A stretch of DNA of 64,000 nucleotides from an uncultured Anaerolineae bacterium (GTDB lineage Bacteria > Chloroflexota > Anaerolineae > Anaerolineales > Villigracilaceae). Each line of letters opens with the position of its first letter. The first letter of the stretch is position 1. The stretch covers positions 9,895 through 73,894 of the forward strand of contig CAKZJX010000022.1 of the NCBI GenBank assembly GCA_937120535.1, read 5' to 3'. The position numbers and the translations under genes were made by a program. Under the pieces are notes generated by a model. The model saw only the letters and a list, made by a program, of their open reading frames with translations. It did not search any database and was not told the origin of the DNA. Below are positions 8,569-38,643 of this stretch, one piece after another.

Positions 8569-8607
8569 GTCAGGATGGCCGTTCCCCATGAATAGAGCGA
8601 CCCGAGT

Positions 8608-13745: not shown

Positions 13746-13788
13746 GGCGCCACCGGCCTATTTTATCAGCAAGCTCCCCTCAACAAGC

Positions 13789-13819
13789 CGATAGGGCGGA
13801 AAATCCATCCGCCCTATCG
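13789..13819. terminator. Perfect 11-bp hairpin, probable intrinsic terminator
   Basis: CGATAGGGCGG-N9-CCGCCCTATCG just after the stop of 13852..15879(-); U-tract weak. Confidence 0.6.
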
Positions 13820-13851
13820 TTGTTCTCGCACCTCACCAGACAGCCCCAAAC

Positions 13852-15879: not shown

Positions 15880-15882
15880 GGT

Positions 15883-16452
15883 TCATTCTCCTGACAACTC
15901 TGGTCGCCGCCATTCTTCCAGAAAGGCGTCAACCGTCTTTCGGTCCCATAACACTACCTTGACCAACTCAATCCCTGACTTCTGTCCCGAAAAGAAGTCG
16001 TCGAAGGTCTCAAACATGATCTGCGCTGCCCGTTCTTTCGGGAACCCGAAGATGCCCGTAGAAATGGCTGGGAAAGCCACTGACGAGCATCCCAGTTCTT
16101 CCGCCGTGCGCAGTGCACCTCGAATGGCTCGCTCTAGCTTCTCGTCTTCACCTCCTTCACCCCATACGGGACCCACAGCATGAATTACATACCGAGCGGG
16201 CAGATGTCCTCCAGAAGTCCAGGCCGGCCGATCGTGGGTGACGAGCCCATGAGTGCGTATCCAGGCATCGCTCTCCTCCTGGATCGCCGAACCCCCGCGA
16301 CGCACGATTGCCCATGCCACTCCGCCTCCGTGGTACAGGTAGGGATTGGCAGCGTTCACAATCGCGTCTACCTCTTCCAGTGTCAGGTCTCCTCGGACCA
16401 GTTGGATGACCTGCCCCGACGCCAAGCGCTTCTCCATCAGCATCTCGTTCAT
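15883..16452 (-). CDS. Macro domain protein (ADP-ribose / O-acetyl-ADP-ribose hydrolase family)
   Basis: GDLT, DAIVNAAN, HGGGVA, VIHAVGP, PAISTGIFGFP. Confidence 0.92.
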   Translation of the reverse strand: MNEMLMEKRLASGQVIQLVRGDLTLEEVDAIVNAANPYLYHGGGVAWAIVRRGGSAIQEESDAWIRTHGLVTHDRPAWTSGGHLPARYVIHAVGPVWGEGGEDEKLERAIRGALRTAEELGCSSVAFPAISTGIFGFPKERAAQIMFETFDDFFSGQKSGIELVKVVLWDRKTVDAFLEEWRRPELSGE

Positions 16453-17341: not shown

Positions 17342-17884
17342 CTAGCCGAGCTTTTCAGCTTTCTTCTTGGCGTGTTTGGCCGGAGCGAGCACAACCATCA
17401 TTGTCCGTCCTTCCATTTGGGGAGGCTGTTCGATCACGCTGACATCGGATAGGCTCTGGGTGATCTCCTTTAGGTCTTCCAGCGCCAACTCCGGATAGTC
17501 CATCTCACGACCCCGGAATCGGATCGTAACCCGAACCTTGTGACCTTGCATCAGCCAACGACGAGCGTCATCCACCTTATAGCCGCGATGGGCTTCATTG
17601 GTCTTGGGCCGCAGACGGATCTCCTTAACCTCGATTTTGGTCTGTGCCCGGCGCGCTTCGCGCTCTTTCTTGGCGCGTTCGTAGATGAATTTACCGAAAT
17701 CCATCACCCGACAGACGGGCGGGTTAGCGGTTGGCGCCACCTCCACCAAGTCCAGTTCCGCCTCCTGGGCGATCTTCAAGGCTTGCTTGATAGGGACAAC
17801 ACCCAGGTTCGAGCCATCTGGACCGATCAACCGCACTTCGGGAGCGCGGATGCTCTCATTGACACGAAACTCATTAGCGCTGAT
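17342..17884 (-). CDS. infC: Translation initiation factor IF-3, probable non-canonical ATC start
   Basis: RVNESIRAPEVRLIG, DLVEVAP.A.PPVCRVMDFGK, KEIRLRP, GHKVRVTIRFRGRE; SD AAGGAG 6 nt before in-frame ATC at 17884. Confidence 0.95.
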   Translation of the reverse strand: MSANEFRVNESIRAPEVRLIGPDGSNLGVVPIKQALKIAQEAELDLVEVAPTANPPVCRVMDFGKFIYERAKKEREARRAQTKIEVKEIRLRPKTNEAHRGYKVDDARRWLMQGHKVRVTIRFRGREMDYPELALEDLKEITQSLSDVSVIEQPPQMEGRTMMVVLAPAKHAKKKAEKLG

Positions 17885-17949
17885 ATGCCTCTCCTTTAGG
17901 TAGTCGAACAAATGAATGCAAGAAATCTCTCCAGCGTTTGGGCGGGCGA

Positions 17950-17979
17950 ATGATACCATGAGCTCGGGCGAATCGTCAA
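17950..17979 (-). promoter_or_regulatory. Sigma70-type promoter of infC-rpmI-rplT
   Basis: Minus strand TTGACG-18 nt-TATCAT with extended TG. Confidence 0.65.
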
Positions 17980-17987
17980 TAAAATTT

Positions 17988-18151
17988 GGGCTTGTTCAAT
18001 AAATCTCTCTGGATGGTACAAACTATCTCTAGAAGAGCCACAAGCAGGCCGTTTGACCCTTGAATCGGCGGCTGATTGCATCGCTGATCCCCTCCTATGC
18101 TTGCTCTACCAGGCTCTCCTTGCGCTTCAAGAGTGCTTATTGAATAAGCCC
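17988..18151. mobile_element. MITE-like element, family 2, copy A (164 bp)
   Basis: TIRs GGGCTTGTTCAATAA / TTATTGAATAAGCCC (14 of 15 match); 143/164 identical by hand alignment to the reverse complement of 29159-29322. Confidence 0.85.
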
Positions 18152-18240
18152 AGCGAAATTGAGAAACGCTATCCTTCTGCCGGCCCAAGGAGTTGCTGAG
18201 CCATTCCCCAGTTAGGGCACAACGCAGCAAGCGGAAGGGC

Positions 18241-19443
18241 TCAGGGCGGTGGCAGGAAGTTCCAGGGATTCACCTTGTAGGAACCATGCATCAGTTCAAA
18301 GTGGAGATGGGCTCCCGAGGAGCGGCCAGTGGAGCCAATGGCGCCGATGGTTTGTCCACGGCCAACGCTCTCGCCGCAACTTACCCAAATTGAGCTGAGA
18401 TGAGCGTAGAGCGATTGCCAGTTGTCACCGTGATCGATCATGATCATGTTGCCGTAGCCGCCATCGTGCCAGCCGGCATAGACCACCACACCAGCATCCG
18501 CAGCGTAGACCGGATCGCCCGTCTGGCCGGCCAGGTCAATCCCCCAGTGATTGGTCTCTGGGCTGTAATCGTAACCGGAGAGATAACGGCGTCCGGTAGG
18601 CCAGACGTAGGAACCATAGCCAACCGCTCCTCCCTGAACTGGTCCGCAAGCACCGGGTCCCCAAGCACGGGCAATGGCCGGATCGTTGCGTGAGATGCCG
18701 AATGGGGCGTTCCAGGTGGTGAATTCTCGGCGACCGCCAGGGATGATCAACCACGTGCCCCTGGGGATGTTGGGGTTAGTGTAGTCGCCAACGGCGTCTG
18801 GATCGAGTTTGTTGCCGGGGTATTCGATAATATCGCGCGCAGTTACGCCGAAGTAGCGCGCCCAGGCCTCAAAGTTGATCCCTCCCAGCCATTCGTGGTA
18901 GACGCCGTCCACAGGTAGGATGTTGAGTTCTTGCCCCGGACGAAGGGCATGGGGATCGTCAGCCAGGATATTGTAGTTTCCCCACAGGATGGTTTGAGGT
19001 TTGAGCCCGAATTTCTCGGCGATGCCGAAGACGGTATCCCCCGGCTGGACGACGTATTTGAGGATTTCCTGGCGAGGACGGGTGGGAATGATGGTATGGG
19101 GTTGGGCAGAGCGCGCCAGGCCGAGCAAGGGGGTATCGGTGGCAGGCGGAAGACGATCTAAGGTCGGAGGGAGGGGGGCGGTTGAGTCGGCTATGAGAGC
19201 AGATACCGGCCGTAAGAACGAAGGGGCTTGCTCAAAGAACAGCTCCAAAAGCCAGAGGGCGGCGGCGATCAGAACGATCGTGAGAACGGTGGTGCCTAAC
19301 CTGAATAGACCCTCACCCAGGCCGATTTGGAACAGTGTTCGAAGCCAGCTGGGCAAAGCGTTCATTAGAGAGACGCCCGCCGAAGCCAGCAGATTTTCTG
19401 TGGATGGAAGGGGACGATCGTTGTTGTCTAGGAAAGGTTCCAT
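18241..19443 (-). CDS. LysM domain plus M23 peptidase, membrane-anchored cell-wall hydrolase
   Basis: TM segment; LysM YVVQPGDTVFGIAEKFGL; M23 HWGIDLA, SLYAHL, STGRSSGAHLHFE. Confidence 0.9.
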   Translation of the reverse strand: MEPFLDNNDRPLPSTENLLASAGVSLMNALPSWLRTLFQIGLGEGLFRLGTTVLTIVLIAAALWLLELFFEQAPSFLRPVSALIADSTAPLPPTLDRLPPATDTPLLGLARSAQPHTIIPTRPRQEILKYVVQPGDTVFGIAEKFGLKPQTILWGNYNILADDPHALRPGQELNILPVDGVYHEWLGGINFEAWARYFGVTARDIIEYPGNKLDPDAVGDYTNPNIPRGTWLIIPGGRREFTTWNAPFGISRNDPAIARAWGPGACGPVQGGAVGYGSYVWPTGRRYLSGYDYSPETNHWGIDLAGQTGDPVYAADAGVVVYAGWHDGGYGNMIMIDHGDNWQSLYAHLSSIWVSCGESVGRGQTIGAIGSTGRSSGAHLHFELMHGSYKVNPWNFLPPP

Positions 19444-19508
19444 AAAAAAATTGCGTGGTCATCATAACAAAGGGAAAAGAGCATGTCAAGTTGCCTTTTC
19501 ATGACAGC

Positions 19509-20183
19509 TTAATAGGCAAGCGGGCGGATCAGATCGGGGTGATCGATGGCAGGAGAGTTGACCTGGGGCGATACGGGATGGGCAAGCATCTCTTCAGCAG
19601 GGTAGGGCCGTAGGAGGGGGAGTAGGTGCTCGGGGTGCTGGGGCGAAGGGTCAATCCATTGCGTATAGTCTGAGGGATGGAGGATGACAGGCATGCGGTT
19701 ATGAATCGGCTCCAGGAGGGCATTGGGGGTGGTGGTGATAATGGTTGCTGAGCGGATCACGCCGCCATTCGGCGCGTGCCACTCGTCCCATAGGCCGGCG
19801 AAGGCGAAGAGGCGATGATCTTTCAGAAAGATGTAGTAGGGTTGTTTGGTTTTGACTCCCGGCCGAGATTGCCATTCGTAAAACCCATCGGCCAGGATCA
19901 GGCAGCGTTTGTAGCGCAGGGGGCCGCGAAAGGATGGCTTCTCGGTGAGGGTCTCGCTGCGGGCATTGATCAGGCGGTTGCCAATGGTCGGATCTTTGGC
20001 CCAGGAAGGGATCAGGCCCCATAGGAAGAGGTCTACAGCCGCTCGCCCGTCGTTAGGGATGGCCAGGATGGGTTGCGTGGGGGCTATGTTGTAGCGCGGA
20101 GCATAGGTCGGCGGGAAGGTGAATTCGGGGAAGGCCTCACGTAGGTCGTCTAGGGCCATGGTGAGGGTGAAGCGGCCACACAT
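19509..20183 (-). CDS. SRAP-family (YedK/HMCES-like) abasic-site processing protein
   Basis: MCGRF N-terminus, PRYNIAPTQ, LINARSET, ADGFYEW, IHNRMP. Confidence 0.95.
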   Translation of the reverse strand: MCGRFTLTMALDDLREAFPEFTFPPTYAPRYNIAPTQPILAIPNDGRAAVDLFLWGLIPSWAKDPTIGNRLINARSETLTEKPSFRGPLRYKRCLILADGFYEWQSRPGVKTKQPYYIFLKDHRLFAFAGLWDEWHAPNGGVIRSATIITTTPNALLEPIHNRMPVILHPSDYTQWIDPSPQHPEHLLPLLRPYPAEEMLAHPVSPQVNSPAIDHPDLIRPLAY

Positions 20184-20184
20184 A

Positions 20185-21408
20185 TCAGTCTCCTCGAGAG
20201 GCGACCGATTCGGCCAGGGCGATGCGCATGCGCCGCAGGGCTTCGCGGACCAGCTTGCGAGGCATGGCGATGTTCATGCGCAGAAAACCTTCGCCGCCAG
20301 GGCCAAAGATGGCGCCTTGTTCCAGGTAAACCCGCGCCCGTTCGACGAAGAAGCGTTGTAGGGAGGAGGGATCCATGCCCAAGGCGCGGCCATCCAGCCA
20401 GACCAGGTAGGTTCCTTCGGGGCGGATCATGCGCAGAGGGGAGAGGAAGCGAGTCACATAGTCTTCGACCATGTCGAGGGTTTGGCTCAGGTAGCGGAGC
20501 AGGTCGTCTAGCCAGGCAGCGCCATGGGTGTAGGCGACTTCGGTAGCCAGGCGGCCGAATAGGTTGGTGTTGGGCAGGGCATTTTGGGCGAGGTATGTTT
20601 TGAATTGGGCCCGCAGGGTGCGATCGGGGATGATGATGTTGGAGTGGGCTAGGCCGGCCAGGTTGAAGGTCTTGCTGGCGGCGGTGCAGATGATCGCTCG
20701 ACGGGCGATCTCTTTGCCTAGAGCTCCGTAGGAGGTGAAGGGGACGAAGCTCAGGTCGGCGTGGATCTCGTCGGAGATGACCAAGAGGTCATGTTCCAAG
20801 CAGATCTGGGCCAGGCGGGTGAGTTCTTCTCGGGACCAGACGCGCCCGACTGGGTTGTGTGGGCTGCACAGGATCAGCAGGCGGGTGTGGGGATCACGGG
20901 CTTTGCGGGCCAGATCGTCGAAGTCCATGGTGTAGCGTCCGTCTTGATAGCGCAAGGGGTTTTCGACGATCTCGATCTGATTGACGCGCAAGACATGGTA
21001 AAAAGGGAAGTAAACCGGCGGCTGGATGATGGCCTTGTCGCCCGGTTGAAGGAAGGTGCGCACCAGCATGGCCAAGGCGGGGATCACGCCCGGCGTGGCG
21101 ACGATCCAATCGGGTTGGATCTCCCAGTTGTGGCGGTTCTTCATCCAGTTGACCACGGCTTGGTCGTAGGTTTGGGAGCGCTCGGTGTAGCCGTAGATGC
21201 CATGACGGGCGCGGGCGACCAGGGCTTGAACCACAGGGCGCGGTGCAGCAAAGTCCATGTCGGCAATCCACATTGGGATGGCGGCGTCGGGTCCCTGGAA
21301 GAGATCGGTGCGGATGTGATGGAGGGGATTGTGTTCCGATTGGATGGTTTCCCACTTGACGGAGTCGGTGCTGATGCGAGAGATGAGGGTGTCGAAGGAG
21401 GAAGTCAT
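20185..21408 (-). CDS. MalY/PatB-family PLP-dependent C-S lyase (cystathionine beta-lyase)
   Basis: PMWIADMDF, HGIYGY, LCSPHNPVGRVW, SDEIHADL, SKTFNLAG, FLRMNIA; start moved to ATG 21408 (TATAAT 7 nt upstream). Confidence 0.92.
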   Translation of the reverse strand: MTSSFDTLISRISTDSVKWETIQSEHNPLHHIRTDLFQGPDAAIPMWIADMDFAAPRPVVQALVARARHGIYGYTERSQTYDQAVVNWMKNRHNWEIQPDWIVATPGVIPALAMLVRTFLQPGDKAIIQPPVYFPFYHVLRVNQIEIVENPLRYQDGRYTMDFDDLARKARDPHTRLLILCSPHNPVGRVWSREELTRLAQICLEHDLLVISDEIHADLSFVPFTSYGALGKEIARRAIICTAASKTFNLAGLAHSNIIIPDRTLRAQFKTYLAQNALPNTNLFGRLATEVAYTHGAAWLDDLLRYLSQTLDMVEDYVTRFLSPLRMIRPEGTYLVWLDGRALGMDPSSLQRFFVERARVYLEQGAIFGPGGEGFLRMNIAMPRKLVREALRRMRIALAESVASRGD

Positions 21409-21515
21409 GGTTGGAATTATAATGGCGTTCGGCAAGAGGCGCACGGGAGATTTGGACGGATGCTTGTCAGGGGATTGGATTTGGTCTATACTATACTCTA
21501 AATAGCGGAGTGGTT

Positions 21516-23171
21516 ATGTCCGAAATTGATATGCGCTCACTGTGGAAAGCGATTGAGGGGTATATTCCTCTCGGTCGTTCGGGGTTATTGCCGGCGTTGC
21601 ATGCCGCCCAGGGCTTGTATGGATGGATTTCAGAGCCGGTTGCCGAGGAGATCGCCCGAGCGCTCAAGGTGCCTTTGGCGGATGTACATGGTGTGATCGA
21701 GTTTTATTCGCTGTTCTACAATCGGCCAGCGGGGCGGCGGGTGGTGCATGTTTGTGTGGACCCGGCCTGCGCGCTGTGCGGTTCGGAGCGGTTGGTTGAC
21801 GATCTATGCGCGCAATACGGGGTCACCCCAGGCCAGGTTTCTGCCGATGGGGAGATCACGATCGAGCGAAGTCCTTGCTTGGGGTTGTGCGAGCACGCGC
21901 CGGCGGTGTGGACAACGGGGGGCGATCGATGGTGGATTGGCGCCCCTGGTTCAGAGAGAACGTTCCCGCCTTCGGTGGTGTATGGTTCGGTTCGCTGGTT
22001 AACGGTTCACTGTGGGAATGGGACCGCCGATCTGGCTCGGTATGGTCCGTATCGTGGGTTGGAGAAGGCATACCAAATGACGCCGCAGGCGGTGATCGCC
22101 GAGGTAAAAGCCAGCGGCTTGATGGGACGCGGCGGAGCAGCCTTCCCAACGGGCGTGAAGTGGGAGGGGGCGGCGCGTGCGGAGGGGTGGCCGAAGTATG
22201 TGGTGTGTAATACGGATGAATCGGAGCCCGGGACGTTTAAGGATCGGGTGTTGCTGTTGGATGATCCACATGGGGTGATCGAGGGGATGTGTATTGCCGC
22301 CTATGCCATTGGCGCTTCGAGGGGGTATTTTTATGTGCGGGGTGAATATCCGTATTTGGTGCCGATCCTGGAGAAGGCTCTGGCCGAAGCGCGCGCTGCC
22401 GGTTATTTGGGGAATGGGTTCGATGTTGAGATCCGCCTGGGAGCCGGCGCGTATATCTGCGGCGAGGAGACGGCGTTGTTCGAGTCGATTGAGGGCAAAC
22501 GCGGGTTTCCGCGCGTCAAGCCGCCGTTCCCAACGACGCATGGGTTGTTCGGAAAGCCGACGGTGATCAATAACGTGGAAACGCTGCGGAACGTTCCGAT
22601 CATCCTGGAGCGCGGAGCGGCGGCCTATCGCAGCTTGGGGACGGAGAAATCGCCGGGGACGAAGTTGTTCTGTCTTTCGGGCGATGTGGGTCGGCCCGGG
22701 CTGTATGAGGCGCCGTTCGGGATCACGTTGCGGGAGTTGTTGGAGATGGCCGGCGGTGTGGACGGCAAGTTACAGGCGGTGCTTTTAGGCGGCGCAGCCG
22801 GCGCTTTTGCTACTGCCGATCACCTGGATGTGCGGCTCACCTTCGAGGATCTGCGGGCGGCCGGCTTGCCGCTCGGTTCGGGTGTGGTGATGGTGTTCAA
22901 CGATCAACGCGATCTACGTCGGGCGCTGTTGCGGTTGGCCGAGTTTTTTGCCCATGAGAGCTGCGGCAAGTGTTATCCGTGTCAGATGGGGACCCAGCGT
23001 CAGGTGGAGATTTTGAAGCGGTTGGTCAACGGTCGGTGGAGGCCAAAGGACCGTCAACGTCTGCAGGACGTGGGATGGACAATGACCGATGCGTCGCTGT
23101 GCGGCTTGGGCCAGACGGCGGCCAGTGCCGTGCTTTCGGCTATGGCGTTGTGGCCGGAATGGTTTGAGTAG
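21516..23171 (+). CDS. Fused NuoE/NuoF-like diaphorase subunit of an NAD-linked formate dehydrogenase
   Basis: 2Fe-2S ligands VCVDPAC / CLGLC; [51 protein letters not shown]. Confidence 0.9.
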
Positions 23172-23194
23172 GGAATGAACAACAAGGTGCAGCT

Positions 23195-23881
23195 ATGACA
23201 ATCCAGCTAATGATGGACGGCCGAGAGGTGATTGCTGAGAACGGACAGACGTTGCTCGACGTGACGCAACGGTATGGGATTGTTATCCCAACTATTTGTT
23301 TTCATCCAGCCACGACGCCCAATGCGCTGTGCCGAATCTGCGTCGTGGAGGTGGAGGGGCAGCGGTTGCTCCAGCCGGCCTGCATCGTCCGAGCGGCGGC
23401 GAATATGAAGGTGCAGACGCGCAGCGAGCGAGTGATGCGAGCACGGCGCACGATTCTGGAGATGTTGGCGGCCACGGTGGATCTTTCTGAGGCCCCAGAC
23501 ATTCTGGCGATGATTGACGAGTATCAGGCCGATCCACAGCGCTTTCCAGAAGCTCATCCTCGCTACGTTCCGATCAAGGACGATAACCCGATGTATGTGC
23601 GAGACTACTCGAAGTGCGTCTTGTGTTGGCGCTGTGTGCAGGTGTGTGCGGAAGATGCCCAGTATACCTATGCTATTAACTTCAGCGGCCGAGGCTATGA
23701 GACGCAGATCGGCACGTTCTTCGACCAACCGATTCCCGAAACGACCTGCGTATTTTGTGGCCAGTGCGTTGGGGTTTGCCCGACCGGGGCGTTGAAGCCA
23801 AAGCGCGAGGCGCTGCTTGAGCAGGGCTTGATGCCGGAGCAGATCGTTAGGTTGAACACCGGCCGCAGGAGGAGAACCTGA
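23195..23881 (+). CDS. Iron-sulfur subunit (2Fe-2S plus 2x4Fe-4S), NuoG/FdhA N-terminal-like
   Basis: IPTICFH...CRICVVE...PAC; [11 protein letters not shown]; [12 protein letters not shown]. Confidence 0.9.
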
Positions 23882-23886
23882 TCGTG

Positions 23887-24717
23887 ATGCCGCTCCCGAT
23901 TGTGTTTGGGTTGCTCTCGGCCATTTTGTGGGGCGCAGGGGATTTCTACGGTGGATTGGCTGTTCGTCGCTCCAATCTGTATGGCGTGGTGTTGATCGCT
24001 CATGGGATCAGCTTGGGTTTGTTGCTTGGGTTGGCGCTGGCGATAGGGGAGCCGGTGTCGCCGCTGGGCGATTGGTTGTGGGGCGGCGCTGCCGGCATCT
24101 GCGGTGCAGTAGGGTTGGTGTTGCTCTATCGGGCGCTGGCCACCGGCCAGATGAGCGTGGCCGCTCCTCTCTCGGCGTTGCTGGCCGCTGCCCTGCCGGT
24201 GGCGGTCGGCTTCTTGACCGAAGGCTGGGTGGGGGGATGGACCCTGGCAGGTTTTGTGCTGGCGCTGGCGGCGGTGTGGTTGATCTCCGGAGGGGCCGGC
24301 GTTGTCTTGGATCGGCAAGCGCTGGTCTTGCCGTTTCTAGCTGGCCTGAGCTTTGGCGGCTTCTTTGTCCTCATCCATTTTGCTAGTGGAGTCTCGGTGG
24401 TGTGGCCATTGGTAGCGGTGCGGATTGTTTCGGTGCTCGGCCTGTTGGCGTTCTCATGGCTTACCCGTCAGCAATGGTGGCTGGCAAGCGAGAGCTGGCT
24501 GCCTATCCTGCTGAGCAGCATCTTGGACTCGGCGGGGAACACCTTTTACGCGCTTTCGGCGCAAACCGGTCGGATGGACGTGGCCGCCGTGCTCGGTTCA
24601 CTGTATCCGGGTTCCACTGTGTTGTTGGCTTATGTTCTCTTGAAGGAACGCCTCTCTTATCAACAGATGAGTGGGATTGCGACAGCACTGACAGCAATTG
24701 TCTTGATCTCGGTATGA
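23887..24717 (+). CDS. DMT/EamA-family membrane transporter
   Basis: About 10 TM in two repeats; [45 protein letters not shown]. Confidence 0.85.
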
Positions 24718-24775
24718 CTCATTGCTTGAGCTGCTTATTCGTTGTTTTGCAAGGCAGGAGAACCTGCCAGGAGGG

Positions 24776-27007
24776 ATGCTGATGATCCAAGCCGATCGAG
24801 TCACTCGTACGACTTGCCCCTACTGCGGTGTTGGGTGCACGCTTGAGCTGCACGTCAAGCAGAATTTTATTTACAAGGTCACTTCACCGTTCGATTCGCC
24901 CGTCAACCATGGGAATTTGTGCGTTAAAGGGCGCTTCGGATACGACTTTATTTACCATCCCAATCGGATCACAACGCCGATGGCGAGGCGCTATTTGTTG
25001 CAGAATGATTATCAAGGCGCTCTGTGGAAGACCCGTTATCACGCACCTGAGCTGGGGAATCGTTCGCTGACCAACGGCAACGATTCGCCGACGCCTTGGG
25101 ATTGGGTGGAGACCGACTGGGAGACCGCCCTCAATCTGGCGGCCGATCGCCTGACGCATATTTATCAGCGCGATGGTTCAGACGCCATGGCAGTGTATTG
25201 TTGTGCCAAAGCGACCAACGAGGACAATTATGTGTTGCAGAAAATGTTCCGCGCTCTGTTCCGCACAAATAACGTGGATCATTGCACGCGCTTGTGTCAT
25301 GCCGGCTCGGTCGTTGCGCTCCAACAATCGCTGGGCACATCTGCCATGAGCAACACGGCCTCCCAAGTGATGCTGAACGATGTGTTTATCGTCACTGGTT
25401 CGAACACGACCGAGAATCATCCCATCATTGCCTTACAGATGAAGGCAGCGGTCCGCAAGCGCGGCGCCAAGATGATCGTGGTCGACCCGCGGCGCATTGA
25501 ATTGGTGGACTTTGCGGAGCTGTGGTTGCCTCTCAAGCCGGGCACCAACGTGCCGCTGTTCTCGGCGATGGCGCACGTTATCGTGAAGGAGAACCTAGTG
25601 AATTGGGACTTCGTCCGCACCCGGACCGAAGGGTTCGAAGGGTATGTCGAATCGTTGGAGAAGTTCACGCCGGAATATGCTGAGGCGATCTGCGATGTGC
25701 CGGCCGAGAACATCCGCCAGGCGGCGCGGCTGTATGCGACGGCCAAAAACGCCGCTATTTACTGGGGGATGGGTATTTCGCAACTCTCCCACGGCACGGC
25801 TTCGGCGCTCTCGCTGGTCCATTTAGCGCTCCTCACCGGCCACATCGGGCGCGACGGAACCGGCCTGAACCCCTTGCGAGGTCAAAACAACGTGCAAGGC
25901 GCCAGCGATATGGGAGCCATGCCGTTTCATTATCCAGGTTACATGCTAGTGGATCGGGAGGAGAACGCCGTTCAATGGGAGCGGCTATGGAAGGTGGAAC
26001 CAGGCGGCCTCTCGCGCAAACTCGGCCTGACCACGACGGAAATTCTTGAGCATGCCCATGAAGGCGGAGTACGCGCGCTGTATATCATGGGCGAGAACCC
26101 GATGATGACGGAACCTAACCTGAACAGGACGCGCCAGCACATCGAGCAATTGGAGTTTCTGGTGGTGCAGGACTTGTTCCTGAATGAGACCGGCGTGTAT
26201 GCCGATGTGTTTTTGCCAGCCGCTTCGTTTGCCGAGAAGGACGGGACGTTTACCAACACCGATCGACGGGTGCAGCGCGTTCGTGCAGCGCATCCGCCGC
26301 GGGGTCAGGCTCGACCTGATTGGCAGATCGTCTGCGATCTGGCGAAGCGGATCGAGGCCCGCTTGGGACGTCCAACCTCTGCTGGTTGGGACTATGCCCA
26401 TCCGGAGCAGATCCTGCGCGAGGTGGCGCAGGTTAACCTGGATTATGCCGGCATCACTTATGAGCGCATTGAGAAGGTAGGGCTGCAGTATCCGGCGCCC
26501 ACGCTGGATTATCCCGGCACGCCAACCCTGTTCACGGAGACGTTCCCGCGCGGGCGCGGGCGGTTCATCCCCTTGGATTATGTGCCGGTGATGGAGCAAG
26601 CCGACGACGAGTTTCCGTTCATCTTGACCACAGGCCGGGTGCTCGAGCACTGGCATGGAGGTACGATGACCCGCCACTCGGTCATCGATCAGGTGTATCC
26701 TGAAGCTCGGGTGGAGATTCATCCGGCCGATGCGGAGATCCACGGCATTCGAGATGGCGACCCGGTTCGGGTCCGGAGCCGACGCGGGGAGGTGGTGTTG
26801 CGCGCTTCGGTGACCGAGAAAACGACGGTCGGGGTGGTCTTCATTCCATTTCACTTCGTCGAGGCAGCGGCCAACTTGTTGACCAACGACGCGCTCGATC
26901 CTCAAGCCAAGATTCCGGAGTTCAAAGCTTGTGCGGTGCAGATCTTTCCAGCGCGCGAGACCGATCTGCCCAATCCGGAGGCGATTTTGCGGCGCGGACG
27001 CTATTGA
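24776..27007 (+). CDS. fdhA: Formate dehydrogenase catalytic (Mo/W-bisPGD) subunit, Cys form
   Basis: CPYCGVGC...LCVKG, NVDHCTRLCHA, PLRGQNNVQG, EKDGTFTNTDRRVQ, LTTGRVLEHWH; start ATG 24776 or 24782. Confidence 0.92.
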   Translation: MLMIQADRVTRTTCPYCGVGCTLELHVKQNFIYKVTSPFDSPVNHGNLCVKGRFGYDFIYHPNRITTPMARRYLLQNDYQGALWKTRYHAPELGNRSLTNGNDSPTPWDWVETDWETALNLAADRLTHIYQRDGSDAMAVYCCAKATNEDNYVLQKMFRALFRTNNVDHCTRLCHAGSVVALQQSLGTSAMSNTASQVMLNDVFIVTGSNTTENHPIIALQMKAAVRKRGAKMIVVDPRRIELVDFAELWLPLKPGTNVPLFSAMAHVIVKENLVNWDFVRTRTEGFEGYVESLEKFTPEYAEAICDVPAENIRQAARLYATAKNAAIYWGMGISQLSHGTASALSLVHLALLTGHIGRDGTGLNPLRGQNNVQGASDMGAMPFHYPGYMLVDREENAVQWERLWKVEPGGLSRKLGLTTTEILEHAHEGGVRALYIMGENPMMTEPNLNRTRQHIEQLEFLVVQDLFLNETGVYADVFLPAASFAEKDGTFTNTDRRVQRVRAAHPPRGQARPDWQIVCDLAKRIEARLGRPTSAGWDYAHPEQILREVAQVNLDYAGITYERIEKVGLQYPAPTLDYPGTPTLFTETFPRGRGRFIPLDYVPVMEQADDEFPFILTTGRVLEHWHGGTMTRHSVIDQVYPEARVEIHPADAEIHGIRDGDPVRVRSRRGEVVLRASVTEKTTVGVVFIPFHFVEAAANLLTNDALDPQAKIPEFKACAVQIFPARETDLPNPEAILRRGRY

Positions 27008-27010
27008 GGC

Positions 27011-28246
27011 TTAGTGGCGGGTGGCTAGATCGAGGACCGCGTGGAGCAGGACGTTGGCTCCGTGGGCCAGGTCGTTGGGGTCGGTGTATTCGGCCGGGTT
27101 GTGGCTGATGCCGTCGCGGCTGGGGACGAAGATCATCGCCGCTGGGTATTTGTGGGCCATCAGTTGGGCGTCGTGGCCGGCGCCGGAGATCATCGGGCGG
27201 TAGGAAAGCCCTAGGCGCCGGGCAGCCCGTTCAACCGCTCCGATCACCAGCGGGTCGAAGCGCACCGGCTGAACATGTTCCAGATCGCGCACTTCGATCT
27301 TCACGCCCTCCTCGGCCACCACTTTTTGGAGGTATTCCCTCAGCATGGCTTCGGCGCGTCGCAGGTCACTGGGTTCAGGGTTGCGCAGATCCACGGTGAA
27401 GGCGACTCGGCCGGGGATGACGTTGATGGCGTTGGGTTCGAAGGAGAGGCGGCCGCAGGTGGCACGCTGGGGTTCGCCGAGGGCAGCTGTGATCTCACGC
27501 AGATAGGTGATCACTTTGGCGGCTGCCAGGCCGGCATCGCGACGCATGTCCATCGGGGTGGTGCCGGCGTGGTTGGCAGCGCCAATCACGATGATCTCTA
27601 GCCAGGTGATGCCGGTTACCCCCTCGACGACGCCGATCGTCTGGCCGGCCCGATCGAGCACTGGCCCCTGTTCGATGTGCAGTTCGAGATAGGCGTAGGG
27701 CTCGATGGCGCCGGGTTGCATTGGGCCGGCGTAGCCGATGCGCTGCAGTTCATCGCCGAAGCGAGAGCCGTCCACGCCCCGCATGTCTAATGCTTGCTCT
27801 ATCGGCAGTTCTCCGACGTATACGGCGCTTCCCAGCATGCCAGACGCATATCGCACCCCTTCTTCATTGGTAAAGGCAGCCACGACCAGTGGGCGCAGAG
27901 TTTGCTTGTTGTGTTCGTTCAGCGTAGCAATGCATTCTAAGGCGGCCAGCACACCGTAGGTCCCGTCCAATTTGCCAGCCACGCTCACCGTGTCAATGTG
28001 TGAGCCAAACATGACAGGCAGGCTGCCGGTTTGGCCAGGGCGGATGCCAAAGATGTTCCCAACGCGGTCGATCTGCACCGTCAGGTTGAGCGCTTCCATC
28101 CAACGGACAAGTTGATCGCGCGCCTGTTTATCAGGGTCGGTCAAGGAGAGGCGACTGACGCCTCCGGCTTCCAGAGCACCAATGCGGGCCATTTCGTCCA
28201 AGCGTTCAAGCAAGCGAACTTTGTTGATGCGTAGGCGAGGGGTCAT
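27011..28246 (-). CDS. M20-family Zn amidohydrolase (allantoate / N-carbamoyl-amino acid amidohydrolase type)
   Basis: GSHIDTV, DGTYGVL, NEEGVR, ELHIEQGP, ANHAGTTPM, SGAGHDA, SHNPAE. Confidence 0.9.
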   Translation of the reverse strand: MTPRLRINKVRLLERLDEMARIGALEAGGVSRLSLTDPDKQARDQLVRWMEALNLTVQIDRVGNIFGIRPGQTGSLPVMFGSHIDTVSVAGKLDGTYGVLAALECIATLNEHNKQTLRPLVVAAFTNEEGVRYASGMLGSAVYVGELPIEQALDMRGVDGSRFGDELQRIGYAGPMQPGAIEPYAYLELHIEQGPVLDRAGQTIGVVEGVTGITWLEIIVIGAANHAGTTPMDMRRDAGLAAAKVITYLREITAALGEPQRATCGRLSFEPNAINVIPGRVAFTVDLRNPEPSDLRRAEAMLREYLQKVVAEEGVKIEVRDLEHVQPVRFDPLVIGAVERAARRLGLSYRPMISGAGHDAQLMAHKYPAAMIFVPSRDGISHNPAEYTDPNDLAHGANVLLHAVLDLATRH

Positions 28247-28908
28247 TTGTGTTGGGTCTCCTTTCGGTTGCCGAACGATTGACTTAGGTCAGTGAACAGG
28301 GTTTCGGCGGCATAGGCGCGGTCGGCGACGGGAGAGAGGCGGGCAGCCATGCTCGGTGTGATCAGACGGATGACCGGCCGGCCGCAGAAGTGGCGATGGT
28401 AGAGGCGGTTTGCACCTTCTTCGTCCCACGCCCAGTTGAGATGGGTGTAGCAAGCGGCGTTGAAAGGACGGGTGTAGCCGCGCAACACTTTCGCTTGACG
28501 AATGCTGACAAAATGCTCAAAGTAGGTCATCACTAGCTCGCGCAAGGTCTTGTGAACCGGCTCGCGGAATCCTAGGTTGATGTAGTTGGATTTGGCGATC
28601 GCTCTCCAGCGCCCTTCGATGCGGTAGAGGGCCAACACGTGATCGTCGTCCACGCCAGGATCAGGGACAACATCAATCAGCAGGGGTGGAAAGCCAAAGC
28701 GCCACAGGCAGAGGGCGGCCAAAAAGCCGCCGTCTAGGCAGTGACATTGTCCATCCAGCATCACGTTGAGCGGTGAGCGATTGCGCTCCTCAGCAACATA
28801 GCGCAGCGAGTCGAGGTAATTCTGAATGGCGAAGGGGGTGGTCAGTTGGTGGAATTGCTCTTGGAGGTGGGACGGCAGGCGCAATTCGAATTCGGTCAGG
28901 AACGACAT
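28243..28908 (-). CDS. Conserved protein, vasohibin-like transglutaminase-fold cysteine protease candidate
   Basis: HCLDGG...DDHVLAL..EGRWRAIAKSN..LGFREPVHKTLRELV; GAGG SD before ATG 28908; ATGA overlap with the amidohydrolase. Confidence 0.7.
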   Translation of the reverse strand: MSFLTEFELRLPSHLQEQFHQLTTPFAIQNYLDSLRYVAEERNRSPLNVMLDGQCHCLDGGFLAALCLWRFGFPPLLIDVVPDPGVDDDHVLALYRIEGRWRAIAKSNYINLGFREPVHKTLRELVMTYFEHFVSIRQAKVLRGYTRPFNAACYTHLNWAWDEEGANRLYHRHFCGRPVIRLITPSMAARLSPVADRAYAAETLFTDLSQSFGNRKETQHK

Positions 28909-29158
28909 ACAGAATCCTCGTCTGAAAAGCAGCACAATGATTCTAACGCACAGGGGTGGGTTGCTCTCAAAATGTGATGATTTTGCGATCTATTGACTTG
29001 GAATCCGTGAGGCAGGGCGCCTGATCCGTGTTTCGTTGGCAGGCTAAATTCATCGGAAGTGGGCTCAGGATCGGGCCTACAAGCTCAGGATGCGACTGAA
29101 CCCTTGCCGTCTAGGCAAAATCGAAATTTCAAACGGTGTATTTTGAGGAACTGGAACT

Positions 29159-29322
29159 GGATTTGTTCAATAAGCATCCTTGACGCAAAAGGAGAGGCCG
29201 GTAGAGCAGGCATGGGAGGGGATCAGCGATGGAATCAGCCGCCGATTCAGGGATCAAACGGCCTTCTTGCGGCTCTTCTAGAGACAGTTCGTACCATCCA
29301 AAGAGACTTATTGAACAAGCCC
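29159..29322. mobile_element. MITE-like element, family 2, copy B (164 bp, inverted relative to copy A)
   Basis: Ends GGATTTGTTCAATAAG / CTTATTGAACAAGCCC; gap-free alignment to the reverse complement of copy A. Confidence 0.85.
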
Positions 29323-29331
29323 CAATTTCGC

Positions 29332-29360
29332 TTGACAACCTACTCGACCAGGATTACAAT
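29332..29360 (+). promoter_or_regulatory. Strong sigma70-type promoter of the tRNA operon
   Basis: TTGACA-17 nt-TACAAT, 29 nt upstream of tRNA-Phe. Confidence 0.8.
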
Positions 29361-29389: not shown

Positions 29390-29465
29390 GCCGAGATAGC
29401 TCAGTTGGTAGAGCACGCGACTGAAAATCGCGGTGTCGCCAGTTCGATTCTGGCTCTCGGCACCA
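29390..29465 (+). tRNA. tRNA-Phe(GAA)
   Basis: GCCGAGA/TCTCGGC acceptor stem, CGCGA-CTGAAAA-TCGCG anticodon arm, TTCGA T loop, encoded CCA. Confidence 0.97.
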
Positions 29466-29469
29466 GGAC

Positions 29470-29541
<72 letters not shown>

Positions 29542-29554
29542 CTCAATGTCATAC

Positions 29555-29625
29555 GGCGTCGTGGCCAAGTGGTAAGGCAAGGGTCTGCAAAACCCTGACC
29601 ACGGGTTCGAATCCCGTCGACGCCT
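29555..29625 (+). tRNA. tRNA-Cys(GCA)
   Basis: GGCGTCG/CGACGCC acceptor stem, AGGGT-CTGCAAA-ACCCT anticodon arm; CCA not encoded. Confidence 0.95.
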
Positions 29626-29661
29626 CAGCTACTAGCTTAGATCGTTGCATGCCACCCCTCT

Positions 29662-29775: not shown

Positions 29776-30108
29776 AGGAGTGGCGAAATTTAGGTTCGAT
29801 AAACTCATGAGCAGGATAACTGGAAAAACGCTGCTTGCGCCATGGACGTCGGTTGAAGCAGGACATCAAACGTTTCCAGGCTGCTTGCAAAGCTTCTGGA
29901 CCACGCAACAAGAAAAACAGCGCGAGCGTCGCGCCAGGCGAGCGAGATCATTGCCCAACTCGGCGTTCTTCCCTTCGGGGTCGGCCTGTGCTTGGGATCC
30001 GGCCTCCACCCCGCCGTGCCAAGCGACTCACATGGGAACACGTAGATCACAGAGACTTCCCGCGTCTTTGTGTCTCTGTATGAAAAAATTCCCTTTTTAT
30101 CCACTCCC
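29776..30108. mobile_element. MITE-like element, family 1, copy 2 (333 bp) with 8-bp target-site duplication
   Basis: Ends AGGAGTGGCGAAAT / TTTTATCCACTCCC; flanked by direct repeat TATAATCG at 29768-29775 and 30109-30116; inverted relative to 6086-6424. Confidence 0.88.
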
Positions 30109-30125
30109 TATAATCGTTAAATGCT

Positions 30126-33100
30126 ATGAGATCCTATCCTCCGTTTTATCGTTTCGCCTTCGATATTGCTTCTGAAGGCATCTTTCAAGCCAGCTTCAGA
30201 GGGGGATACATACACGTCAACGCTGCCATGGCTAGAATGTTTGGCTACACTTCACCGAACGAAATGATCGACTCGGTTGAAGATATTGCCCAAGACATCT
30301 TTGTTCTCCCAGACGAATATCGACGTTTCCAGGAAGAACTGAAAACCAAAGGGGCAATTGACCAATTCCGAACTCTACAGAAACGTAAAAATGGAACGAT
30401 CTTCTGGGTCTCGTACCGGGCATACGCCATCCGAGACTCAAAAGGCCGGCTCCGATCGTACATTGGTTTCGTCCAAGATATTACCCAACAAAAAAACATC
30501 GAGCTGGTGTTGGAACGCGTCGATAGCATGCTTCCCTCCCATCAAAGCTTGCTCGAAAACCTCCCCGCCGCTATATACATTGACACAATGAGCCAAGACC
30601 CCACCATAGGCTTCTACATTAGCTCGCACATTAAAACCATTAGCGGATATTCCCCAACCGAATGGAGCGGACGTGGCTTCTGGGCGAAAGTGATTCACCC
30701 CGACGACTACCCGAGCTTTGAGCGAGAAAACGAACGCACCGACCGAACCGGCGATCGCTTTGATATGGAATACCGCCTGATCCACAAAGATGGCCATATC
30801 GTCTGGGTACGCGATATTGCGACGGCCGTATGTGATCCCAAAGGCAAACCGATTTATTGGCAAGGGATCATGGTGGACATTACAGCTCAAAAACGGCTGG
30901 AGGAAACCATCCGCCACAGTGAAAGCCGTTTTCGGAAGGTGTTTCACAACAGCCCGGTAGCTATCTGCATTACCACGCTTGAGGAAGGGATTTTCCTGGA
31001 TGCTAACAAAGCCTATTTGACTCTGTTTGGCGTCTCTCGCGAACAGCTCATCGGTCGTTCGATTGTGGATTTAGGCATCACCGATGCGGCAACCCGTGCT
31101 CGCTGGGTAGCCGACTTACAGGCTGCCGGCGGTTTGCTGCGCAATCAACTGTTTTCGTTTCTCACTATGAACGGCGAGGTCTTACAAACCTTGGCGTTCT
31201 ACGAAATCGTTGAGCTAGAGGGCAAAAAAGCTATCCTCTCGATGTTCAACGACATCACCCCTCGCGTTCAGGCCGAACGTGCTCTGCGCAAGAGCGAAGA
31301 ACGCTATCGAGCCCTTGTCGAGAAATTGCCCGGCATAGTCCTCTTGCGCTCGGCGGAGAACACGCTGGTGACGCTATACATCAGTCCCCAGGTGGAGACC
31401 ATTCTGGGCTACACCTCGGAAGAATGGTTGGCCGATCCCGAATTCTGGGAGAAAGCTCTTCACCCCCTTGACCGAGAACACATCATTGAAAAAATCCGGC
31501 AAGCGACCCAACAGCAAAAGCCCTTTCACGCAGAATATCGCATGCTGAGTCGCTATGGCGCCATCGTTTGGATCTATGAGCAATCCCATCTGATCTACTC
31601 AAATGGTCATCCTACCTATTGGCAAGGATTTCTGCTCGATATTACCAGCAAGCGCGAAGTTCAAGAAGCCCTTGGAGAAGTTGCCGAAGTCTATCGCGGT
31701 CTGTTCGATAGCATCCAAGAAGCCATTTACGTCCAGGATTGGAACGGTCGCATCTTGGATGCCAGTCTGGGAGCCGCCAAGATGTACGGCTATCCCAGAG
31801 AAGCTTTCCTAGGAAAAACCCTGCTCGACTTCGCTGCGCCCGACAAAAACGATATCAACGCCCTGCGCCAAGCGTCAGAACAGGCCTTTGAAGGTATCCC
31901 CCAACAAGTGGAATTCTGGGGGCAACGCAGCAATGGCGAGATCTTCCCTCAAGAGGCTCGCTTCTACAAAGGCAATTACTTCGGGCAAGATGTGATCTTC
32001 GTCATTGCCCAAGACATCACTGAGAGAAAAAAGGCTCAAGAGGCCCTCGAGCGCCGGTTAAGAGAACTATCTATCCTACACGAATTGGCGCTGGAAGCCG
32101 GCCGTATTTTGAACGAAGATAAATTGATCAAGCGCGCCGGCACAATTATCCAACGCATCCTGTCCCCCGATCGGTGCACGTTCATCCTACTCAGCAATGA
32201 TGAGCGCTATCTCTATGTCCATCCGGCATCTCTGGGTCATTCGGGTGAACAGCAAACAATCTATCCGATCGAACACGGAACCATAGGGGCTGTGGTCATC
32301 ACCGGCCAGCCAGTCAGGGTTCACGACACGCGACGCAGCAAACACTATCCTCCTCTAGATGCAGAGATGCGTTCTGTGCTCTGCGTTCCGATGAAAATCG
32401 GTCAGCGGGTGATCGGGGTGATCAACCTTGAAAGCGCTCGGCCCGGCCAATTTACCGAAGATGACGAAAGGTTGTTGACCACCATTGCCGGCCAACTAGG
32501 GCCGGCCATCGAACGACTGCGAACCGAACGAGCCGAACGCGAACAGCGTCTGCTTGCTGAAGCGTTGCGAGACATTGCCTCTGCCCTGAACAGCACTCTG
32601 GACTTCAATACTGTCCTTGATCGCATCTTGGAGAATATCGGGCGCGTTGTTCCTAGCCTTGCCGCCAGCATTATGTTGATAGAAGACGACATGGCTCGTC
32701 CGATCCGTCATCGCGGTTTTTCCGAACGCGGACTGGGAGACTGGATGGACTCCTTGCGCCTAGACTGTCGAGCCATTCCCAACCTCCGGCGCATCCTGGA
32801 AACTGGCCTGCCCGATCTCATCCCCGATACCCACAATTGTCCAGAATGGATCGTCTTCCCCCAGACGGCGTGGATCCGCTCCTACCTAGCTGCGCCGATT
32901 AAGACCGATCACAAGATCATTGGCCTTCTCTCGTTGGATCACGATCAGCCCAATTTCTTCCAACAGCAAGATGCCGAACGGTTGGTGGCTTTTGCCAACC
33001 AGGCGGCCTCGGCCATCGAAAACGCTCGGCGCTACGAAGAGGAAGTCCGTCGCGCTCGCATCATTGAAACTCTGGCTGAGATCGCCAACCTTATCGCCAC

Positions 33101-35648: not shown

Positions 35649-35698
35649 CTCCCGACCGATCTGCCCGCCGGGTGGGTGATAGTGGGGGGGGCCCCACC

Positions 35699-36922: not shown

Positions 36923-36932
36923 AGTCACCTCA

Positions 36933-37451: not shown

Positions 37452-37478
37452 AAAAAAATTATACCGCGCCTACTCGGC

Positions 37479-38387: not shown

Positions 38388-38643
38388 TGCACCTCCTAAA
38401 AAACGAACGCTTCGAAATCAACGAAACCAACGTCGTCCAGCTTATATTCAAGCTGTTTGAGCGCTTTCCTGAGCCTCTTAGCCTCGGTCAGGGCCTGGCT
38501 GGGCACGTCAAGCGCATCCAAACGCAACTGCCGGCTCTGGCCTGACAAATTGTTAAAGTTTGGGAAATCTCTGCCACAGACACTCACAGCGCTGGTACTT
38601 TTTTCCAAACAAGCGGTATAATTCATAAAGTTACGGAGGCTCT

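Follow-up and report, generated by a model that had tools for sequence, protein, structure and literature searches.

Evidence for an 11.0-kb inversion between opposed copies of a 164-bp IS903-like miniature element in an uncultured Anaerolineae genome

The window (the whole analysed stretch of 64,000 nucleotides, belonging to G000, a short-read metagenome-assembled genome [MAG] of 140 contigs) carried a nine-gene block enclosed by two opposed copies, A and B, of a short element (Table 1). The Pfam search returned nothing for the product of 28243-28935, termed "vasohibin-like" in the initial annotation, and the Rfam search of the window returned three tRNAs and nothing else. The tRNA-operon promoter was recognised as host DNA lying outside the element, because a homologous TTGACA-N17-TAAAAT preceded tRNA-Phe in G010, a relative of the same genus (see below). 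A programmed invertible segment was considered and found no support: no recombinase domain was found by Pfam in or beside the block, and a single orientation was present in both available assemblies, although a minority of the population may carry the other.

Table 1. Features of the inverted block, its bounding elements and its flanks (window coordinates)
Feature	Position	Strand	Basis or remark
infC (IF3), then rpmI, rplT	17342..17959 (infC)	-	fixed left flank
-35-like TTGACG, infC upstream	17979-17974	-	L end of copy A abuts
MITE copy A	17988..18151	+	164 bp; L end left, R end right
TSD copy 1	18152..18161		AGCGAAATTG; now inner side of A
Inverted block	18152..29158		nine genes, 11.0 kb; Pfam, GC3 skew, G010 synteny
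M23/LysM	18241-19443	-	Pfam
SRAP	19509-20183	-	Pfam
Aminotransferase	20185-21444	-	Pfam
NuoF-like gene	21510-23171	+	Pfam
Fer2_4/4Fe-4S gene	23195-23881	+	Pfam
EamA	23884-24717	+	Pfam
Molybdopterin formate-dehydrogenase-like gene (FDH)	24722-27007	+	Pfam
M20 peptidase	27011-28246	-	Pfam
230-aa gene ("vasohibin-like")	28243-28935	-	no Pfam match
MITE copy B	29159..29322	-	inverted relative to A; L end toward tRNA operon
TSD copy 2	29323..29332		CAATTTCGCT; outer side of B; exact reverse complement of 18152-18161
tRNA-operon promoter	29332..29360	+	TTGACA 29332-29337, 17-nt spacer, TACAAT 29355-29360
tRNA-Phe(GAA), tRNA-Gly(GCC), tRNA-Cys(GCA)	29390..29626	+	fixed right flank

The initial annotation had described A and B as inverted copies of one 164-bp element with terminal inverted repeats, and their coordinates and orientation held: the repeat search of the window gave inverted arms at 17982-18153 and 29157-29328, and the aligned copies were 87-88% identical, with 21 differing columns spread along the element and a longest identical run of 17 nt. 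The element began with GGGCTTGTTCAATAAG and ended with CTTATTGAACAAGCCC (terminal inverted repeats), and at 164 bp it was too short to encode a transposase, as expected of a miniature inverted-repeat element (MITE: short, bounded by terminal inverted repeats, non-coding). Its family comprised about 45 copies in G000 (about 42 full-length, plus fragments) and had a star-like phylogeny. Relative to the family consensus, A (93.3% identity) had 11 private substitutions scattered from end to end, and B (93.9%) had 10, none overlapping those of A; the two shared no derived substitution, and each was nearer to other copies (best match 90.9% for A and 93% for B) than to its partner.

A target-site duplication (TSD) of 9 bp was read from the 13-15 of 38 copies that kept their own (two mismatches at most), the remaining 23 or so having none. 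Flanks varied from copy to copy, so CAATTTCGCT was no fixed sequence of the family; the sole recurrence was GTCA/TGAC just beyond the 9-bp TSD, giving the target form GTCA-N9-TGAC, with GTCA at -13 to -10 in 34 of 121 termini and motif bases in about 57% of termini. The search of G000 for an autonomous partner, meaning a transposase gene enclosed by two such ends at a distance of 0.9-1.3 kb, returned none, and the DDE_Tnp_1 matches in G000 belonged to other IS5-family elements lacking these ends; this absence is weak evidence, since multi-copy IS sequences may be missing from the MAG. No copy of the family was found in the 30 relatives searched, which places both insertion and flip within this lineage, after its divergence from G010. 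From its sequence, the 164-bp element was classified as a non-autonomous IS903-like MITE that multiplied in this lineage only.

The proposed 10-nt reverse-complement flanks matched at 10 of 10 positions (AGCGAAATTG at 18152-18161 and CAATTTCGCT at 29323-29332). The -35 box of the tRNA operon begins with the final T of the latter; because the family TSD is 9 bp, the tenth matching base may be due to chance or to an extra G on the terminus of B. For any one pair, a 9-mer at a fixed position would match by chance with a probability of about 1e-5, which amounts to about 0.1-0.5 pairs expected genome-wide over all termini, and six split-TSD pairs were found between different, non-tandem copies in the genome. 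The split TSD marks the place, between M23/LysM and the tRNA operon, where an element once stood as a simple insertion. One flank pair restored a perfect duplication and the second did not: the caveat of the initial annotation that the pair left of A and left of B restored no TSD was borne out, and the outer flanks (ATAAAATTT left of A and CAATTTCGC outside B) were no duplication of each other. Partners of the unmatched flanks ATAAAATTT and AGTTCCAGT were sought beside every element end in the assembly and none was present, which counts against strictly conservative recombination, as this would have kept them somewhere.

Strand composition was compared by per-gene GC3 skew instead of whole-sequence GC skew, because the latter was noisy on several contigs. 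The + strand GC3 skew was +0.11 to +0.48 in 9/9 block genes (18241-28935), -0.15 to -0.40 in every gene of 403-16452 and -0.14 to -0.41 in every gene of 30126-41552, on either strand in both flanks, with rplT and infC near zero. The skew reversal first suggested by spot counts was thereby upheld gene by gene, with a discontinuity at both inversion endpoints, and the inflections sought near 18.1 and 29.2 kb appeared as turning points of the cumulative GC skew at 18668 and 29232. The G+C content of the block (0.58-0.62) was the same as that of the flanks.

The gene order was then compared with G010 (about 70% amino-acid identity, four contigs, MITE-free), which contained the run FDH, EamA, Fer2, NuoF, aminotransferase, SRAP, M23/LysM, tRNA Phe-Gly-Cys, PAS/GAF/HD-GYP and then seven further genes. 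This run was collinear with the window only once 18152-29158 was flipped back, and it confirmed both the right endpoint and, for seven block genes, their orientation. In the rebuilt empty site, the spacer from M23 to tRNA-Phe measured 146 nt (138 nt in G010), and the rebuilt site and G010 had the same TTGACA-N17-TAnAAT promoter. An ancestral M23/LysM gene reading toward the tRNA operon, as the initial annotation had proposed, was therefore exactly what this element-free relative displayed, in contiguous order; it had the unflipped arrangement, not that of the window. M23/LysM adjoined tRNA-Phe in G010 only among the relatives; in L040-L045 and L057 it was followed by tRNA-Val, after which L040, L041 and L044 had orthologs of genes on contig C80 of G000.

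The left breakpoint had a different history. No supporting relative was found for it, and the "vasohibin-like" gene, supposed to have been ancestrally divergent from infC, adjoined infC in no relative: in every relative with both, the two were on separate contigs or far apart. The distance from infC to tRNA-Phe in G010 was 1.7 Mb. Upstream of infC, the relatives of the genus had orthologs of the small G000 genes C80_882_1268 and C80_353_937 and then of a 621-aa gene (C114_2434_4299), which in G000 sat on contigs C80 and C114; any junction between infC and the 230-aa gene just before the flip would accordingly have been derived already. From this comparison, the infC side was recognised as an older breakpoint, itself a prior rearrangement, and the position of the infC-side copy at such a junction is the likely reason for the missing second TSD pair. 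As a separate observation, the lineage-specific MITE burst coincided with extensive synteny loss relative to the genus.

The split TSD, the GC3 skew and the gene order of G010 agreed that, as first proposed, the block is inverted between two copies of a non-autonomous element, and 18152-29158 is read as a real, fixed 11.0-kb inversion between inverted 164-bp IS903-like MITEs, present in two assemblies (probability about 0.85). The events fall into three steps, the first two of which can be read from the sequence: (i) a MITE inserted 8-9 bp upstream of the tRNA-Phe -35 box (TTGACA), in the spacer that separates this promoter from the 3' end of M23/LysM, and generated a 9-10-bp duplication, CAATTTCGC(T); (ii) a second copy, in opposite orientation, sits correspondingly placed upstream of the -35-like box of infC; and (iii) an exchange between the two copies would have flipped the intervening DNA, carrying one TSD copy to the inner side of A and keeping the other on the outer side of B.

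For step (iii), homologous recombination between the inverted copies while they were still nearly identical is favoured at slightly under even odds; recombination and a transposase-catalysed event are indistinguishable from sequence, and the latter is almost as likely. It counts against recombination that the identical run of A and B now measures 17 nt, less than RecA needs to work efficiently, so that the exchange would have to predate most of their divergence. In a mosaic test of A and B as reciprocal chimeras of two parents, private changes were distributed along the whole length of each; this was uninformative, because the family is star-like and the private changes may postdate the event.

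A flip catalysed by a transposase instead of host recombination, only a little behind in likelihood, could have followed two routes: (i) intramolecular replicative transposition, by which the copy at infC reached the tRNA-promoter site and a single step produced both the inversion and the second copy in inverted orientation; and (ii) reversed-ends (alternative) transposition, in which a staggered cut at the tRNA-promoter site received the R end of one copy together with the L end of a copy nearby, and the stretch separating those copies was lost. The TSD was placed as an enzyme would place it, 9 nt from TGAC, the preferred target of the family, and the reversed-ends route predicts the observed state, in which a single pair is restored, the other is unrelated and the genome no longer contains the partner flanks. 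The reciprocal TSD was checked in two other split pairs (C54 22398/46202 and C42 19797/C82 40662), and these likewise restored one pair only. About 60% of the copies lacked their own TSD and few of those flanks had a partner anywhere, so that non-conservative events seem common in the family. The products of IS903 include cointegrates, adjacent deletions and simple insertions, which fits this route. It is also favoured by the report of IS movements linked to large rearrangements without target-site duplication (PMC11708052). Against it, A and B had no shared derived substitution and each was nearer to other copies, giving no positive sign of copying; the replicative route would still require a donor that lacked a TSD of its own; the assembly contained no autonomous IS bounded by such ends; and, because 60% of the copies have no duplication, plain recombination too would most often be detected as one restored pair of two.

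Two further explanations of the arrangement itself are very improbable. A composite transposon (MITE-block-MITE) of foreign or translocated origin that had landed between infC and the tRNA operon, bringing its skew from its source, would fit the form of two inverted MITEs around 11 kb and the synteny breakpoint on the infC side, but it is opposed by the outer flanks not being a duplication (see above), by a block G+C equal to that of the flanks and by the contiguity of seven block genes with the tRNA operon and right flank in G010, which makes them native neighbours of that flank. An assembly error, with the block misoriented between inverted repeats, has an equally small chance: an unflipped true genome would give identical skew, split TSD and synteny, and many contig ends of this short-read MAG lay inside MITE copies, but the 17-nt limit on identity between A and B makes both junction paths unique at the usual k, leaving the assembler unable to flip the block, and a separate JGI metagenome contig, Ga0116210_1000500, had the same inverted arrangement at 99.94% identity over 20.7 kb, with 12 SNPs, none of them within the MITEs. 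Exact-protein look-ups with SRAP, M23/LysM and infC returned a single foreign contig among the available records, of the same arrangement, and a metagenome scan of those records for an unflipped or empty site, anchored on the tRNA-promoter flank, returned no matches.

A second candidate inversion was detected on contig C54, with the split duplication AACTCTCTG and copies 23.8 kb apart; its GC3 skew was noisy, one copy was located at a synteny breakpoint relative to G010, and the predicted adjacency was absent from the 18 relatives searched.

The family also displayed a strong association with promoters, a more interesting lead than the flip itself. Among 43 TTGAC-flanked termini, 33 also had a -10 box at the correct spacing, and about one-third of all intergenic promoter-like sites of this kind were MITE-docked. 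A short element family starting with the same IS903-like end was present at window position 50831, and a family of about 340 bp may be a third with this end. That the 164-bp and further families constitute a transposase-driven system, docking 8-9 bp upstream of the -35 boxes of complete sigma-70-type promoters and reshuffling the chromosome, is an unlikely proposal; if it were true, reversed-ends or replicative transposition would reshuffle the chromosome by linking ends that belong to different copies with targets near promoters, and the inversion would be one such single-step event, with the tRNA promoter as its target, instead of a side effect of recombination by the host.

Since infC and the tRNA operon each kept their promoter, the flip was probably nearly neutral, and it mainly changed the direction in which nine genes lie with respect to replication. 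Rearrangements of this sort are ordinary in bacterial genomes; the present one is well documented and provides a multiply supported case of a very short non-autonomous element bounding an inversion in Chloroflexota, a phylum known mostly from MAGs and little studied for genome dynamics. Split TSDs and per-gene GC3 skew can together date and orient rearrangements, draft MAGs included, and inverted MITE pairs in MAG contigs are not automatically misassemblies.

Comparable inversions include a 23.8-kb inversion between opposed ISHsal1 copies in Halobacterium salinarum, reported with MITEHsal-triggered rearrangements (PMC7002104), and Drosophila inversions generated by the MITE BuT5 (PMC3698922). 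The present case resembled these in that inverted element copies bounded the segment and an exchanged ("hybrid") split TSD revealed the prior order, but here the element was non-autonomous and 164 bp long, the host was a Chloroflexota MAG, one TSD pair survived, and the case was built on sequence, skew and synteny instead of long reads covering both orientations. As in replicative inversion by IS26 and the IS6 family (PMC7986276), the inverted TSD lay inside one element and outside the other; unlike in that model, there was no sign that the second copy arose in the event, and the duplication of the donor was not split as predicted. The prokaryotic MITEs found beside promoters include the Correia elements of Neisseria (PMC10969869), likewise short, non-autonomous and clustered immediately upstream of genes; Correia elements carry their own promoters, whereas here the promoter was host DNA outside the duplication, with the element 8-9 bp upstream of the -35 box. 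The closest likeness was to IS903 (IS5 family, IS903 group): the terminal repeat GGCTTTGTTGAATAAATC of IS903B (PMC10569121) and the GGGCTTGTTCAATAAGTC of the MITE were identical at 14-15 of 18 bases (IRL/IRR as printed), the target duplication was 9 bp in the MITE too, and the IS903 target WTTYA-N9-TRAAW (PMC2577343, Table 1) and the MITE target GTCA-N9-TGAC shared the same palindrome architecture with other bases. Unlike IS903, the MITE had target bases coinciding with the -35 hexamer TTGAC(A), contained no transposase gene, with none bearing these ends in the assembly, and resided in a different host phylum.

The window (C22:9895–73894 of the 3.11-Mb, 140-contig MAG G000) contained two inverted copies, A and B, of a single 164-bp element bounded by terminal inverted repeats; the copies shared 87–88% identity and had been correctly positioned in the initial annotation. 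As also reported there, the 10 nt on the right of A (AGCGAAATTG) and the 10 nt on the right of B (CAATTTCGCT) were perfect reverse complements. G000 had about 42 full-length copies plus fragments; copies with their own duplication intact (e.g., TACCTTAAT, GTTCGGACT, and AGTCCAGTT) gave a duplication length of 9 bp, and because flanking bases varied between copies, CAATTTCGCT was a target and not part of the element. The probability that a 9-mer in a set position would match by chance was about 1e-5; over all termini of G000, about 0.1–0.5 pairs were expected by chance, and six (different, non-tandem copies) were found.

The skew contrast between block and flanks described in the initial annotation was confirmed gene by gene. 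GC skew in a 2-kb sliding window was about -0.16 to -0.26 at 10–17 kb, +0.15 to +0.26 at 18–24 kb, and +0.06 to +0.11 at 25–29 kb, and it was back to negative from about 29–30 kb. Several other contigs were noisy in whole-sequence skew, and therefore gene-by-gene skew at third codon positions (GC3 skew) was used: it was positive in 9/9 genes at 18241–28935 (+0.11 to +0.48) and negative in all genes from 403 to 16452 (-0.15 to -0.40) and from 30126 to 41552 (-0.14 to -0.41), with a sign independent of gene strand within each of these three regions; rplT and infC were near zero. Cumulative skew was lowest at 18668 and highest at 29232 (within B).

The sequence was compared with those of 30 relatives (Anaerolineae MAGs, Chloroflexota), 0/30 of which carried a copy of the element. 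The same-genus relative G010 (~70% amino-acid identity, four contigs) displayed, on one strand and with no MITE, SRAP, M23/LysM, tRNA-Phe, tRNA-Gly, tRNA-Cys, and the N-terminus of a PAS/GAF/HD-GYP protein. When a 79-kb G010 map was compared with all G000 ORFs, FDH, EamA, Fer2, NuoF, aminotransferase, SRAP, M23/LysM, the three tRNAs, PAS/GAF, and seven more right-flank genes formed a single collinear run, which agreed with the window in the order and strand of every gene only with the block flipped; this order agreed with the proposed flip, in which M23/LysM formerly read toward the tRNA operon. The M23-to-tRNA-Phe spacer was 146 nt in rebuilt G000 (flanks joined, one duplication copy) vs. 138 nt in G010, and TTGACA-N17-TA(C/A)AAT preceded tRNA-Phe in both; the right breakpoint was therefore exactly at the element. 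Since M23/LysM was followed by tRNA-Val in the relatives' records L040–L045 and L057, the M23/tRNA-Phe adjacency was common to G010 and rebuilt G000 only; orthologs of contig-C80 genes of G000 came after tRNA-Val in L040, L041, and L044. Between tRNA-Cys and the PAS gene, G010 had a tandem repeat, seen as ORFs (a ~33-residue peptide thrice repeated, ~100 nt DNA per unit), at the position occupied in G000 by a ~340-bp element.

On the left side, infC lay near the 230-aa ("vasohibin-like") gene in 0 of the relatives with both genes; this ancestral neighbourhood was the part of the initial interpretation that found no support, the observation and the remaining interpretation being upheld. Upstream of infC, genus relatives had orthologs of C80_882_1268, C80_353_937, and then the 621-aa gene C114_2434_4299, a gene set split over three contigs in G000; C80_882_1268 and C80_353_937 adjoined an IS5-family, not IS903-like, element, and the start of C114 (region 1–4300) held the end of a tyrosine-recombinase gene. 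In G010, infC (803 kb) and tRNA-Phe (2538 kb) were separated by 1.7 Mb, orthologs of contig C130 were found past FDH, and the 230-aa gene ortholog was located ~32 kb further on, on the opposite strand and unaccompanied by the M20 gene. Given these differing infC neighbours and the G010 layout, the infC junction was recognized as an older rearrangement point. No duplication was formed by the flank on the left of A (ATAAAATTT) and that on the left of B (AGTTCCAGT, reverse complement), a likely reason being that an element at this older junction would already have been hybrid; no partners of either flank were found beside element ends across the assembly. The infC ORF as listed started ~20 codons upstream of the alignment start in most relatives, and a -10-like box of a putative infC promoter lay within this extension; the real start is probably further downstream, possibly with a non-standard start codon, for which infC is known. 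The 230-aa protein had no Pfam match at E <= 0.001; its orthologs occurred in 12 relatives (54–75% identical) in varying gene contexts, with weaker homologs (33–43%) in a few further relatives.

Identical flanks are predicted by three routes: (i) homologous recombination between inverted copies, (ii) intramolecular replicative transposition, and (iii) reversed-ends transposition, in which the ends come from two copies. We tentatively favour an exchange by homologous recombination between A and B (probability about 0.45); inversions of this kind usually arise by recombination, which requires only copies still alike at the time. The element family had a star-like phylogeny, with A and B showing 93.3% and 93.9% identity to the consensus and non-overlapping private changes. 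A transposase-catalysed flip is a serious possibility, somewhat short of even odds: reversed-ends transposition predicts restoration of one flank pair only, as found at both other split pairs checked for the reciprocal (C54 22398/46202 and C42 19797/C82 40662), and recombination among copies already without duplications predicts the same. A purely conservative history is at odds with the ~60% of full copies that had no recognisable duplication of their own, few of these flanks having a partner anywhere in G000. The same mechanistic ambiguity has been discussed for IS elements (PMC11708052). Artefact or other routes are unlikely. An assembler flip would leave skew, duplication, and synteny looking identical, but A and B differed at 21 alignment columns spread over the element (longest identical run 17 nt, and thus nothing for a k-mer graph to collapse), and JGI metagenome contig Ga0116210_1000500 (38.7 kb) matched window 9509–30183 at 99.94% in identical arrangement, with 12 SNPs, 0 of them in A or B. 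The other orientation may be present as a minority.

The strongest additional lead was the location of element termini at promoters. TTGAC was present 7–9 nt downstream of 43/121 termini (this element and others with the same end), and in 33/43 TAnnnT followed 16–18 nt beyond, which completes a sigma-70-type promoter lying in unique host DNA. TAnnnT at that spacing accompanied 4.2% of TTGAC sites overall and 14.5% (100/691) of those in intergenic DNA (Fisher p = 4e-18), and about one in three of these promoter-like intergenic sites had an element end docked at it.

MITE tandem dimers were also present, in which a new copy seems to have inserted into the 9 bp beside TGAC that had already served as a target, and split duplications at MITE termini of different contigs suggest further element-associated rearrangements. 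The second inverted MITE pair, on C54, adjoined a TTGACG-N17-TAGAAT promoter, and reversing its flip would regenerate a canonical tandem dimer; GC3 skew was noisy there, and none of the 18 relatives searched had the adjacency that this flip predicts, but comparison with G010 did show a break in synteny at the 46-kb copy. The ~340-bp family (at least 35 copies genome-wide) accounted for the other inverted-repeat pair reported within the window, between whose copies GC3 skew indicated no inversion; it was also fused to the MITE in a 516-bp composite with 95%-identical copies on C73 and C118. A third short family began with the same end as the 164-bp MITE but had a different interior, and its window site is probably another rearrangement junction, because it coincided with a GC skew change at about 50.5–51 kb.

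Coordinates of elements, junctions, and associated features (window positions unless a contig or record is named)
Feature	Position	Detail
Copy A	17988–18151	
Copy B	29159–29322	
Block between A and B	18152–29158	nine genes
Window sites of the terminus–promoter association	17974–17987 and 29323–29360	
infC ORF as listed	17342–17959	
230-aa protein gene	28243–28935	
~340-bp family copy	6086–6425 (-)	
~340-bp family copy	29801–30114 (+)	
Third-family site	50822–50850	end GGGCTTGTTCAATAAG; flank AATCAGAGT
Terminus with split-duplication partner of AATCAGAGT	C37 47184–47192	contig end
MITE tandem dimer	C11 55473/55645	spacing exactly the 9-bp duplication
MITE tandem dimer	C26 37672/37497	same spacing
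MITE tandem dimer	C65 8779/8952	same spacing
MITE tandem dimer	C54 22235/22408	same spacing
MITE tandem dimer	C37 17577	same spacing
Second inverted MITE pair	C54 22235–22451 / 46038–46203	23.8 kb apart; split 9-bp duplication AACTCTCTG
Split 9-bp duplication across contigs	C42 19797 / C82 40662	ACCTTTCAT
Split 9-bp duplication across contigs	C42 1526 / C48 77	TGCTATAAT
Split 9-bp duplication across contigs	C67 138 / C73 5193	GCCGGTAAT
516-bp composite	C127 7225–7740	own 9-bp duplication
IS5-family element and adjoining genes	C80 1–2200	
G010 tandem repeat	L025 491–865	3' of tRNA-Cys

The element ends GGGCTTGTTCAATAAGTC (a GGCC variant exists) matched the IS903B inverted repeats GGCTTTGTTGAATAAATC (PMC10569121) at 14–15/18 positions, and both elements made 9-bp duplications. 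IS903 prefers a short palindrome directly outside the duplication, WTTYA-N9-TRAAW (PMC2577343 Table 1); the target architecture was the same here with different bases, GTCA-N9-TGAC, of which GTCA was found at -13 to -10 of 34/121 termini and motif bases at about 57% of termini, the motif being one-sided in most copies. The element is thus classed, by its ends and target rules, as an IS903-like MITE; no autonomous partner was found in the G000 assembly. Inversions with IS elements or MITEs at their boundaries, recognised by hybrid duplications, are a familiar class: (i) IS/MITE-bounded inversion with hybrid duplications in Halobacterium (PMC7002104), (ii) BuT5 MITE-bounded inversions with hybrid duplications in Drosophila (PMC3698922), and (iii) IS26-type replicative inversions (PMC7986276); the inversion between A and B is a well-supported new case of this well-known type in an under-studied phylum.
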